A stretch of DNA of 64,000 bases from Escherichia coli (GTDB lineage Bacteria; Pseudomonadota; Gammaproteobacteria; Enterobacterales; Enterobacteriaceae), in assembly GCF_003334385.1 (NCBI RefSeq), contig NZ_QOWN01000023.1; one strand, 5' to 3'. The notes beneath the pieces are model-generated. The model saw nothing but the letters and a program-made list of their open reading frames with translations, did not search any database and was not told the origin of the DNA. The translations under genes were made by a program, and so were the position numbers. Below, piece after piece: positions 1-24,126 of this stretch; the stretch's first letter is position 1; each line of letters begins with the position of its first letter.

Positions 1-87
1 ATCGTGAGAGTAATTCATCGGCACGTTAAATCATATCAGGCGTAATACCACAACCCTTAAGTTAGCGCTTATGGGATCATTCCCTGG

Positions 88-537
88 TTGGGCGTTGACG
101 AAAATACAGTGCTGACCAATCGGCAAAAAATCAGCGCCAACGGTGTGCTGCAATGGTCCACCATCCGCCGCCTGACCGAAGAGGTGATGCAGCGGATGAC
201 GGTCAAGGCCGCCAGTAGCGAAACACCCATCGGCACGCTTTCTGGTGGCAATCAGCAAAAAGTGGTGATCGGTCGTTGGGTCTATGCTGCCAGCCAGATT
301 TTGTTGCTCGACGAGCCAACGCGCGGCGTCGATATCGAAGCCAAACAGCAGATTTACCGTATTGTCCGTGAGCTGGCTGCCGAAGGAAAAAGCGTGGTGT
401 TTATCTCCAGTGAAGTGGAGGAGTTGCCGCTGGTGTGTGACCGCATCCTGTTATTACAGCACGGCACGTTCTCGCAGGAGTTTCACGCTCCGGTCAATGT
501 GGATGAGCTGATGTCCGCCATTCTGTCTGTGCACTGA
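88..537 (+). CDS. yphE: Sugar-type ABC transporter ATP-binding protein, C-terminal part only (second nucleotide-binding domain); reading frame is closed upstream by TAA at 43-45 and 58-60
   Basis: ABC signature LSGGNQQK and Walker B LLLDEPTRGVD in translation; 24 bp upstream of the permease gene; the frame has in-frame stops within the first 60 nt of the window. Confidence 0.7.
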   Translation: MGVDENTVLTNRQKISANGVLQWSTIRRLTEEVMQRMTVKAASSETPIGTLSGGNQQKVVIGRWVYAASQILLLDEPTRGVDIEAKQQIYRIVRELAAEGKSVVFISSEVEELPLVCDRILLLQHGTFSQEFHAPVNVDELMSAILSVH

Positions 538-561: not shown

Positions 562-1560
562 ATGTCTGCTTCGTCATTACCATTGCCGCAGGGCAAGAGC
601 GTCTCGCTCAAACAATTTGTCAGTCGCCATATTAATGAGATCGGTTTGCTGGTGGTGATTGCCATTCTTTATCTGGTCTTCTCCCTGAACGCGCCTGGCT
701 TTATCTCATTGAATAACCAGATGAACGTGCTGCGCGATGCCGCCACCATTGGGATTGCCGCCTGGGCGATGACGCTGATTATTATCTCCGGTGAAATTGA
801 TGTCAGCGTTGGGCCGATGGTGGCTTTTGTCTCGGTGTGCCTGGCATTTTTGCTGCAATTTGAAGTTCCGCTGGCGGTGGCGTGCCTGCTGGTGTTGCTG
901 TTAGGCGCGCTGATGGGAACGCTGGCCGGGGTGCTGCGCGGCGTGTTTAATGTACCAAGTTTCGTTGCCACACTGGGGCTGTGGAGCGCCCTGCGCGGAA
1001 TGGGGCTGTTTATGACGAACGCACTGCCAGTGCCGATTGATGAAAACGAGGTGCTGGACTGGCTGGGCGGACAATTTCTCGGTGTGCCGGTATCCGCGCT
1101 GATCATGATTGTGTTGTTTGCGCTGTTTGTGTTCATCAGCCGCAAAACCGCCTTCGGGCGCTCGGTTTTTGCCGTTGGCGGTAATGCTACGGCGGCGCAG
1201 TTGTGCGGCATCAACGTTCGTCGGGTGCGCATTCTTATCTTTACCCTTTCGGGATTATTAGCGGCGGTGACCGGCATTTTGTTGGCGGCGCGCCTCGGTT
1301 CTGGTAACGCAGGTGCCGCAAACGGTCTGGAGTTTGACGTCATCGCCGCGGTCGTGGTCGGCGGTACGGCACTTTCCGGCGGTCGCGGTTCCCTGTTCGG
1401 TACATTGCTTGGTGTGCTGGTGATTACGCTAATCGGTAACGGTCTGGTGCTGCTCGGTATTAACTCCTTTTTCCAGCAGGTGGTACGCGGCGTCATCATC
1501 GTGGTGGCGGTGCTGGCGAATATCTTGCTGACCCAGCGAAGCAGTAAAGCGAAACGCTAA
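562..1560 (+). CDS. yphD: ABC transporter permease (ribose/xylose-type, multi-TM)
   Basis: 332 aa hydrophobic ORF directly downstream of ATPase gene; start codon at 562 preceded by GAGG. Confidence 0.88.
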   Translation: MSASSLPLPQGKSVSLKQFVSRHINEIGLLVVIAILYLVFSLNAPGFISLNNQMNVLRDAATIGIAAWAMTLIIISGEIDVSVGPMVAFVSVCLAFLLQFEVPLAVACLLVLLLGALMGTLAGVLRGVFNVPSFVATLGLWSALRGMGLFMTNALPVPIDENEVLDWLGGQFLGVPVSALIMIVLFALFVFISRKTAFGRSVFAVGGNATAAQLCGINVRRVRILIFTLSGLLAAVTGILLAARLGSGNAGAANGLEFDVIAAVVVGGTALSGGRGSLFGTLLGVLVITLIGNGLVLLGINSFFQQVVRGVIIVVAVLANILLTQRSSKAKR

Positions 1561-3622: not shown

Positions 3623-4041
3623 CGCCGATCGAGAGAAATTGCCCCCGGCCCGGTAATTGCCAATAGCAAGAACGCGCCAGCGATACTGACATTCTTCCAG
3701 AAATTAATCATATTTGGCCCAACCGCATCGCCGGTCATATCCCAGTAATGGTGACCAATCACCGCCGTACCCAGCGTGTAGAAAATAAACAGCACCGCCA
3801 GCGGACGGGTGAAAAAGCCAAGCACGATTAATATCGCGGCGGGCACTTCCATAACTACCGCAATAATCGCTGCCAGCATCGGCATTGGCGCGCCCAACGA
3901 GGCCATATATTGGACCGTACCGTCAAAGCCCATCATTTTGGGAAAACCAAAAATAATGAAAATTAAGACCACGGCGATACGGGCAATTAATAACAAAACG
4001 GGGCGGGCACCTCCAAAATCAAAATAACGTAGTGTGTTCAT
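3619..4041 (-). CDS. yphA: DoxX-family small inner membrane protein
   Basis: Hydrophobic 140 aa product from internal Met ([11 protein letters not shown]); longer ORF extends to 4113. Confidence 0.8.
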
Positions 4042-5349: not shown

Positions 5350-6162
5350 TTAAAGATCCAGCCCAGCCGCTACGTGGCGAATGCCGCGAATCGCTAAACC
5401 CGCATCAGCGTTGATCATCACACCGCTTAATGCGCGATTATTGCGCCGCGATGTCAACATCACATACGGCCCCGTAAAATCCGCCGGTTGCGGGAAAAAT
5501 TGCAGCGGTAAAATGGCGGCAATTTTCTCCGGCGTCAGAGACTGCATTATCGAGGTTTCACTTTGCCCGAGCGCCTGTGGGCCGCGCAGGTCGCTGGCCA
5601 TACCACACGGGCCGACGCCATTCACCCGCACTTTCGGTGCCAGTTCATAAGCCAGTTGGCGAATAAGTCCGGTTGCGGCATGTTTACTGGCGGTGTACAG
5701 CGGGCCACCGCCGCCAGGATACCAGGCGGCATTTGACAGTGTGAAAATCATGCTGCCTTCACTGGCGATTAACGCCGGAGCGCAGGCTTTTGCGCCCAGC
5801 AGGTAACCGAGAACATTGACGTTAAACAGCTCGTGGAAGCCGGTTTCGAGCGTCTCTGCGGGAGTATTAACCAGTGAGGCATTGTGATCCCAGATGCCTG
5901 CATTGCCGATAAAACAATCCAGCTTGCCGGAACGAGTCAGGATCTGATCGACCGCGCGTTGATAATCGGCATAACAGGTCACGTTACCTTCCACCGCCAG
6001 AATATGTTCGCCAAATCGCTGACGCAGACTGGCGACTTTTGCCGCCGACAGTTCCAGCGTGGCAACCTGCGCGCCTTCTTCGATAAATCGCTCGACCAGC
6101 GCCAGCCCTAATCCCGATCCGCCGCCGGTAATAAAAATGGACTCGTTATGCAGATCGCTCAT
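5350..6162 (-). CDS. hcaB: 2,3-dihydroxy-2,3-dihydrophenylpropionate dehydrogenase (short-chain dehydrogenase)
   Basis: SDR N-terminal motif ITGGGSGLG; 4-nt overlap with upstream hcaC. Confidence 0.92.

Positions 6163-14803: not shown

Positions 14804-14804
<1 letters not shown>
14064..14804 (+). CDS. trmJ: tRNA (cytidine/uridine-2'-O)-methyltransferase (SPOUT)
   Basis: 246 aa SpoU-type product; immediately upstream of isc region. Confidence 0.9.
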
Positions 14805-15180
<376 letters not shown>

Positions 15181-22544: not shown

Positions 22545-23321
22545 ATGTCCGAAACAAAAAACGAACTTGAAGACCTGCTGGAAAAAGCAGCAACTGAACC
22601 GGCGCACCGCCCGGCCTTTTTCCGTACTCTACTGGAATCCACCGTCTGGGTGCCTGGTACGGCGGCGCAGGGCGAGGCTGTGGTTGAAGATAGCGCGCTT
22701 GATTTACAGCACTGGGAAAAAGAAGACGGCACCAGCGTCATTCCTTTTTTCACCTCGTTAGAAGCACTTCAACAGGCGGTTGAAGACGAACAGGCATTTG
22801 TCGTAATGCCCGTTCGCACGCTGTTTGAGATGACACTTGGCGAAACGCTCTTCCTTAATGCCAAACTGCCAACCGGTAAAGAATTTATGCCGCGTGAAAT
22901 CAGTTTGTTGATTGGTGAAGAGGGAAATCCGCTGAGCAGCCAGGAAATCCTGGAAGGCGGTGAATCGCTGATATTATCGGAAGTCGCAGAGCCGCCAGCA
23001 CAAATGATTGATTCACTCACCACCTTATTTAAAACCATTAAGCCGGTGAAGCGTGCTTTTATTTGTTCAATTAAAGAGAACGAAGAGGCACAGCCTAATT
23101 TACTTATTGGCATTGAAGCCGATGGTGATATCGAAGAAATTATTCAGGCGACGGGAAGTGTAGCGACCGATACATTACCTGGCGATGAACCAATCGATAT
23201 TTGTCAGGTGAAAAAAGGGGAAAAAGGAATTAGCCACTTTATTACCGAACATATTGCGCCATTCTATGAACGTCGCTGGGGTGGTTTTTTGCGTGACTTT
23301 AAACAGAATCGGATAATCTAA
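22545..23321 (+). CDS. sseB: Enhanced serine sensitivity protein SseB
   Basis: 258 aa from MSETKNELEDLL; gene order pepB-sseB. Confidence 0.88.
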   Translation: MSETKNELEDLLEKAATEPAHRPAFFRTLLESTVWVPGTAAQGEAVVEDSALDLQHWEKEDGTSVIPFFTSLEALQQAVEDEQAFVVMPVRTLFEMTLGETLFLNAKLPTGKEFMPREISLLIGEEGNPLSSQEILEGGESLILSEVAEPPAQMIDSLTTLFKTIKPVKRAFICSIKENEEAQPNLLIGIEADGDIEEIIQATGSVATDTLPGDEPIDICQVKKGEKGISHFITEHIAPFYERRWGGFLRDFKQNRII

Positions 23322-23625
23322 AATATGCCGCCCAAAGGGCGGCATTCGGGCTTACTTGCTGCTCTGAAGGTTGTTAACCACCAGTAAATTGTCGCCGGAG
23401 AGACTCCGGTTATTATTTACCTCGGTTAACAGCGCACCAGAAACAATAAGTACGATACAAAAGCACCGTATCTTCATTGTGCGGTCCATGCGAAGACCGC
23501 ATCACGACAGCACCACTGGCGATATTGCCGCGATAGCAAGCGCTGTGAAACACCTGCATTTACGGCCACGGAACATCCTTTCCTAAAGCCAGCGCCCGTT
23601 TGCGAGACGGCGGAAAGGGCCGCAG
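23318..23625 (-). ncRNA. ryfA: Candidate ~300 nt RNA (RyfA-like), minus strand, carrying small ORFs
   Basis: Minus-strand -10 TATTAT (plus coordinates 23629-23634); GC hairpin 23325-23345 followed on the minus strand by AUUUUAG; span fits the ~300 nt RyfA RNA of the sseA-sseB spacer from memory. Confidence 0.4.
23352..23477 (-). CDS. Candidate small hydrophobic protein (41 aa; 45 aa if started at 23489)
   Basis: MKIRCFCIVLIVSGALLTEVNNNRSLSGDNLLVVNNLQSSK: basic N-terminus plus 15-residue hydrophobic stretch; ends 7 nt before terminator hairpin; no obvious SD; same frame as upstream 24-codon ORF (23502-23576) across a TGA. Confidence 0.3.
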   Translation of the reverse strand: MKIRCFCIVLIVSGALLTEVNNNRSLSGDNLLVVNNLQSSK

Positions 23626-23806
23626 TGGATAATACACTAACAGAACAATAATAACTCTCTTTTGCTTGACAAAAAGAGAGTTACTGGCGAGTATTGTCTC
23701 CGCTGAGACGCGCTTGCATTACTACGGTAATACAACCTGCTGGAAAGGCCGCGAACCGGACCAGCAACAAAAAACCGCCTGATTTTGGCGGTTTTTTGTT
23801 TTTTAA
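23609..23806 (+). repeat. Copy 1 of ~196 bp direct repeat: A/T-stem hairpin containing TTGACA (23666-23671) and a factor-independent terminator (23769-23804); candidate small RNA (RyfB-like)
   Basis: Near-identical core AACTCTCTTTTGCTTGACAAAAAGAGAGTTACTGG and CTGCTGGAAAGGCCGCGAACC shared with copy 2; GC stem plus T-run. Confidence 0.6.
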
Positions 23807-23930
23807 AGGAAAATGAATTTACATGTTTAAGTAATATCTTTTACCGGTTAGAATTTTTAATTTTGAGCAGGATTTGTTTATATTTGTCTGAATTCGGACT
23901 AATAAGCCAGGTTATTTTATTACCGAACAC

Positions 23931-24126
23931 GGCGGAAAGGGCCGGTGTCGATAATACGCTAAATAAACAATAATTACTCTCTTTTGCTTGACAAAAAGAG
24001 AGTTACTGGTGAGTATTGTTTTGCTGTGAAGCACCTGCGTTGCTCATGTAACACAAGTCAACCTGCTGGAAAGGCCGCGAACCAGACTAGCAATAAAAAA
24101 CCGCCAAATTCGGCGGTTTTTTATTG
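23931..24126 (+). repeat. Copy 2 of the same ~196 bp unit (TTGACA 23988-23993; terminator 24095-24123); candidate sibling small RNA (RyfC-like)
   Basis: Offset 322 bp from copy 1; diverged central segment, conserved ends and terminator. Confidence 0.6.

Follow-up and report, generated by a model that had tools for sequence, protein, structure and literature searches.

The window analyzed in this work, a 64,000-nucleotide stretch of Escherichia coli DNA, opens inside a mobile element: its left edge very probably records the transposition of an IS186 copy into codons 350 to 353 of yphE, which split that gene. Positions 1 to 72 (minus strand) correspond to the terminal 72 nt of the element at its transposase-proximal end. 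At 72/72 positions they match the final 72 nt of the IS186 copy (1337 bp) that lies between pdeA and nupC in K-12, and they share nothing with yphE. The yphE sequence resumes at base 73, i.e., at nt 1048 of the 1512-nt gene, and from there on it agrees with K-12 yphE (nt 1048 to 1512) at 100% identity. The first-pass annotation had presented a yphE pseudogene and non-native leftmost bases, such as those of an insertion junction, as alternatives. Both hold together: the leftmost 72 bases are an IS186/IS421 end, and the IS insertion turns yphE into a pseudogene.

The IS186 end and the yphE junction

RefSeq labels the element 'IS4-like element IS421 family' and annotates an IS421-family transposase over the stretch equivalent to positions 1 to 72 in eight genomes; in the literature, IS186 and IS421 are grouped under the name insL (PMC12844343). 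Translated on the minus strand, positions 1 to 18 hold the first six codons of the transposase gene insL (MNYSHD), which reads leftward out of the window. In L001, one of the loci from other genomes with the same insertion, the start of the transposase coding sequence is annotated at position 6018, which corresponds to window position 18. As the transposase starts at position 18 on the minus strand, insL is antisense to yphE in the orientation of the window. Positions 51 to 72 form a perfect 22-bp terminal inverted repeat, CAACCCTTAAGTTAGCGCTTAT. Direct comparison of the element ends, ATAAGCGCTAACTTAAGGGTTG ... CAACCCTTAAGTTAGCGCTTAT, established that the inverted repeats are perfect over 22 bp, and in L001, L002, and L007 to L010 the element terminates at its opposite end in the reverse complement of these 22 nt. 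The window holds only this end of IS186, and the element continues leftward past base 1.

Complete copies are available elsewhere. The copy in L002 is the same as the K-12 IS186 copy across all 1337 nt, and the element measures 1336 to 1338 bp in five other genomes that carry the yphE insertion. The full 370-residue transposase, WP_001300563.1, of which the window shows six codons only, is present in genomes with the same insertion, and it scores 133.3 bits against NF033592 (NCBIfam, IS4 family; cut-off 115). Two orientation-A IS186 copies, at L001 4735 to 6072 and L007 2237 to 3572, have single-base length changes: that of L001 has one C more in a run of five C at element position ~918 (locus orientation), and that of L007 is one base shorter. 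The transposases of both copies are annotated as frameshifted by RefSeq. These length changes may reflect either genuine loss-of-function mutations or sequencing errors in homopolymers.

Translation of the window bore out the earlier observation that no forward frame is open at its left edge. Frame 1 contains TAA at 43 to 45 and 58 to 60, frame 2 has stops at 5 to 7 and 11 to 13, and frame 3 has stops at 27 to 29 and 63 to 65. Frame 1 reads IVRVIHRHVKSYQA*YHNP*VSAYGIIPWLGVDENTVL..., with asterisks for stops. The first-pass annotation had also proposed a short deletion at around positions 61 to 110. On that account, yphE would have degenerated at its own locus by a small deletion together with point mutations around residues 340 to 355, and the leftmost bases of the window would be degraded yphE. 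The stretch YGIIPWLGVDENTVL is superficially shorter than the motif region of RbsA and XylG. No deletion was found, as positions 73 to 1572 align to K-12 with 0 mismatches, and the residues supposedly lost are not missing, since K-12 YphE natively reads ...PENRKEAGIIPWLGVDENTVL; in the window, only the 'Y' directly before Gly350 and what lies to its left are foreign to yphE. Intact YphE does have the 'missing' PENRKEAG motif, right before the point of insertion; the protein reads ...GYTPENRKEAGIIPWLGVDENTVL... there, with GIIPWLGVDENTVL natively placed directly after PENRKEA. Nor is the frame restored by a compensating frameshift upstream, as in all eight genomes that bear the junction an IS element parts the two gene halves. 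In-place decay or a short deletion of yphE is refuted by the IS186 identity of positions 1 to 72 together with the intact sequence from 73 to 537, and we regard its probability as negligible.

An open reading frame at 88 to 537 (plus strand; TTG start, 149 residues) appears in the open-reading-frame list as a mechanical product inside the yphE remnant. As previously noted, it carries two motifs, the signature LSGGNQQK at YphE residue 405 and the Walker B sequence LLLDEPT at residue 427; both belong to the second PF00005 domain of YphE, residues 278 to 432. We rejected it as a stand-alone gene because within YphE its TTG is merely the codon of Leu356 and because RefSeq annotates a partial pseudogene here. 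In practice, no gene should be annotated at 88 to 537, and the left window edge should be recognized as repeat (IS) sequence.

Target site and flanking duplication

The 12 nt that follow the element, GGGATCATTCCC (positions 73 to 84), encode Gly350-Ile-Ile-Pro353 of YphE and represent the right-hand copy of a target-site duplication. Comparison of the repeats showed that GGGATCATTCCC flanks the element at either end in each of the five sequenced insertions that were compared (L001, L002, L007, L008, and L009), and intact K-12 yphE contains it once. As the sequence is duplicated at the ends of the element, no yphE bases were deleted. The repeat can be read equally well in two ways, with 12 duplicated bp flanking an element of 1337 bp (ATAAGC...GCTTAT) or with a duplicated core of 6 bp and CCC/GGG assigned to the ends of the element, and the yphE site fits both readings alike. 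Assigning CCC/GGG to the element around a 6-bp core is the wording of an earlier study (PMC5009759), and '+12 bp' was reported by breseq for lon::IS186 (PMC3861542).

The target of IS186 is a highly specific palindrome, 5'-GGGG(N6/N7)CCCC-3' (PMC5009759; PMC6925257), of which K-12 has only 54 perfect sites (PMC5009759). The element inserts in either orientation at a site, and some sites are used repeatedly (PMC5009759; PMC6925257); 7 of 59 recovered sites were off the consensus by one or two bases (PMC5009759). The empty yphE site of K-12 reads GCG GGG ATC ATT CCC TGG (codons Ala-Gly-Ile-Ile-Pro-Trp), where GGGG-ATCATT-CCCT agrees with the IS186 target at seven of the eight specified positions, not at all eight. 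No further GGGG-N6-CCC or GGG-N6-CCCC motif occurs elsewhere in the 64-kb window, which makes the yphE site the sole near-consensus target of the region.

The insertion very probably occurred at this spot because the yphE codons spell seven of the eight specified bases of the IS186 target. The IS186 transposase was drawn to GGGG-ATCATT-CCCT as a near match of its preferred palindrome, and insertion duplicated GGGATCATTCCC. The outcome is a split gene, with a 5′ part that would lead to residues 1 to 353 followed by 19 IS-derived residues and a 3′ part devoid of a natural start. At the left edge of the window, IS sequence comprising the 5′ region of the transposase gene and the inverted repeat, on the opposite strand, borders on the final third of yphE, which is unchanged.

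The resident IS186 of K-12 (L010 62 to 1398, between pdeA and nupC) occupies a perfect GGGG-AATTAT-CCCC site and has the 12-nt repeat GGGAATTATCCC on both sides. On the opposite strand this repeat is GGGATAATTCCC, which differs at one position from the yphE repeat GGGATCATTCCC. Because of this resemblance, BLAST alignments in thousands of genomes continued for 17 nt beyond the end of the IS. In genomes H48 (NZ_CP135671.1) and H108 (NZ_CP134370.1), IS186/IS421-family copies abut or interrupt acrR, and their flanks resemble the yphE target. As the acrR product represses the AcrAB efflux pump, these copies could be relevant to efflux-mediated resistance.

Recurrence of the insertion in complete genomes

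We searched 5426 complete E. coli genomes with positions 1 to 1600 of the window using megablast. The matches fell into three classes, starting from base 73 (intact yphE, including K-12), from base 51, or from base 1. For the base-51 and base-1 classes, RefSeq places an IS421-family transposase between two partial yphE pseudogenes, and the matches beginning at base 51 come from genomes in which the element is inverted relative to the window. Six genomes match the whole query at 100%. The right junction of the window type was found in 8 of the 5426 genomes, and the paired left junction is present in the same genomes (8/8); in NZ_AP023286.1, the offset between the left and right junctions is 1338 bp. 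The same site harbors the IS in the opposite orientation in nine genomes, such that it is occupied in 17/5426 in all. The paired junctions, together with elements of 1336 to 1338 bp, indicate that the carrier genomes have simple insertions.

The window begins inside the element, with the other side out of view, and the IS186 end might therefore be real and yet mark an IS-mediated rearrangement, i.e., a deletion or an inversion between two IS186 copies. Recombination between IS copies is common in E. coli, with 98 events recorded in one study (PMC5009759), and the genomes that bear the junction have up to ~20 places matching the query. Such a rearrangement is nevertheless very unlikely: all eight complete genomes with the junction have the paired left junction and the same 12-nt repeat, and a right junction lacking its left counterpart occurs in none of the 5426 genomes. 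We infer that the 5′ half of yphE lies directly beyond the element in the source genome.

Similar evidence bears on a repeat-induced mis-join of an IS186 end to yphE. IS copies are classic sites of mis-assembly. However, the same junction is present in eight independently sequenced complete genomes, along with the second junction and the duplication, and it is mirrored in nine others. It also falls exactly at the terminal base of the element and at a target of the IS186 consensus type. An assembly artefact is thus highly improbable, and simple insertion of IS186 into yphE remains by far the best account of the left edge.

The right flanks of five examples have 0 to 51 mismatches per 1500 nt relative to K-12, and differ from one another by up to 51. 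As the flank haplotypes differ and the element is found in two orientations, the insertions represent several independent events, and the sequence comparison points to at least four to five of them at the yphE site. Opposite IS186 orientations have been described at one position of the lon promoter (PMC3045373). Repeated insertion at yphE is what an IS186 target is expected to show, the lon promoter being another example, and target preference alone suffices to account for it. We consider it unlikely that the yphE site is a recurrent hot spot whose occupation is selected, or a reversible switch that operates by insertion and precise excision, although switching of this type has reportedly been seen for lon::IS186. 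If it were, a selected or switch-like IS186 site would silence, in some lineages, the uncharacterized yphFEDCB cluster for sugar uptake and catabolism.

Flanking sequences were also compared between L001 and L002. On the right side of the IS, 1500 nt covering the 3′ part of yphE and yphD are identical to K-12 in both loci. On the left side, 1000 nt covering the 5′ part of yphE and yphF have 7 to 10 mismatches per 1000 nt relative to K-12, and the left flanks of the two loci are nine mismatches apart. This pattern suggests that a recombination mosaic boundary lies close to the yphE insertion site in L001 and L002.

Disrupted yphE, its surroundings, and comparison with known insertions

The 3′ yphE remnant (73 to 537, plus strand) is a pseudogene fragment that comprises nt 1048 to 1512 of the gene, coding for residues 350 to 503 and the stop codon, and RefSeq annotates this part as 'incomplete; missing N-terminus'. 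Its orthology to yphE is established by 100% nucleotide identity over nt 1048 to 1512 and by gene order, with yphD, yphC, yphB, yphA, and the hca genes downstream. Intact K-12 YphE has PF00005 domains at residues 26 to 178 and 278 to 432. The remnant, with residues 350 to 503 only, does not have this architecture of two PF00005 domains in ~500 residues: it lacks the first nucleotide-binding domain (NBD1) and the Walker A motif of the second (NBD2), and it keeps the signature and Walker B motifs of NBD2. In profile searches it aligned from its first residue to positions ~350 to 490 of the XylG, AraG, MglA, and RbsA models, and its scores were far under every family cut-off.

The break falls between the Walker A motif of NBD2 (residue 295) and the signature and Walker B motifs of the same domain. 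In L001, the 5′ part would encode 372 residues, 353 of YphE and 19 encoded by the element, and the 3′ part has no natural start. Because the Walker A motif of NBD2 is severed from the signature and Walker B, the ATPase should be non-functional, and with it the predicted YphDEF sugar transporter. For annotation purposes, yphE is here a pseudogene interrupted by an IS, and the predicted YphDEF transporter is best regarded as inactive.

The first gene after the disrupted yphE is yphD (ABC permease; 562 to 1560, plus strand), which is intact according to the open-reading-frame list and RefSeq. As yphD, yphC, and yphB all lie on the same strand as yphE, a polar effect of the insertion on these three genes is plausible. 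A consensus scan of the plus strand over positions 1 to 700 detected no outward sigma-70-like promoter for yphD, which constitutes weak evidence.

The gene order in the window is yphE (3′ part)-yphD-yphC-yphB, then yphA, hcaD, hcaB, and onward to hyfR. Relative to K-12 MG1655 (L005 and L006), positions 73 to 64000 differ by 18 substitutions, e.g., at 4010, 8313, 12422, 23813, and 57857, and by one extra 91-bp repeat unit; the source is thus closely related to K-12 but distinct from MG1655. The trmJ-iscR intergenic region contains a tandem array of four 91-bp units with 98% matches at 14804 to 15170, where MG1655 has three units, and three Rfam matches to naRNA4 (CssrE, a nucleoid-associated ncRNA) are found in this array. 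The difference in the trmJ-iscR array is one of copy number of a REP-type repeat. The sseB-sseA intergenic region (23320 to 24122) has Rfam matches to ryfA (23320 to 23623, minus strand) and to the IS128 sRNA (23755 to 23963, minus strand). It also contains an internal direct repeat of ~195 nt (23607 to 23797 versus 23929 to 24122; ~82.7% identity), and the small toxin gene timP is annotated in its K-12 counterpart.

A literature search for yphE together with IS186 or insertion sequences found no paper, and this particular site may be unreported in the searchable literature. The insertion is ordinary in kind, with a standard IS186 at a near-consensus target that is annotated by RefSeq in 17 complete genomes. 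It makes a small addition to IS186 biology, in that yphE is a natural recurrent target one base off the perfect G4-N6-C4 palindrome.

The closest known system is the IS186 of K-12 (IS186A/B/C; iso-element IS421; IS4 family), with which the window has the 72-nt end and the 22-bp inverted repeat in common; the full element of L002 is identical to it (1337 bp, transposase WP_001300563.1). The copy between pdeA and nupC likewise has a GGGG(N6)CCCC-type target and a 12-nt flanking repeat, and the use of both orientations at one site applies to yphE as it does to described IS186 insertions. Only the location differs from K-12, where yphE codons 350 to 353 are unoccupied, and in contrast to the perfect palindrome the yphE target ends in CCCT rather than CCCC. 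The lon promoter, fimA, and menC contain hot spots at which independent IS186 insertions hit one exact position in both orientations, guided by the palindromic G4/C4 motif (PMC5009759; PMC3045373; PMC3861542). Those hot spots came from laboratory selections or mutation-accumulation lines, whereas the yphE site is occupied in natural isolates (17/5426), and, unlike them, it is associated with no known phenotype or selection. Intact YphE is a sugar ABC ATPase with tandem NBDs, of the same architecture as RbsA, XylG, MglA, and AraG; the 154-residue remnant corresponds to residues 350 to 503 of K-12 YphE, about two-thirds of the protein being cut off by the element.
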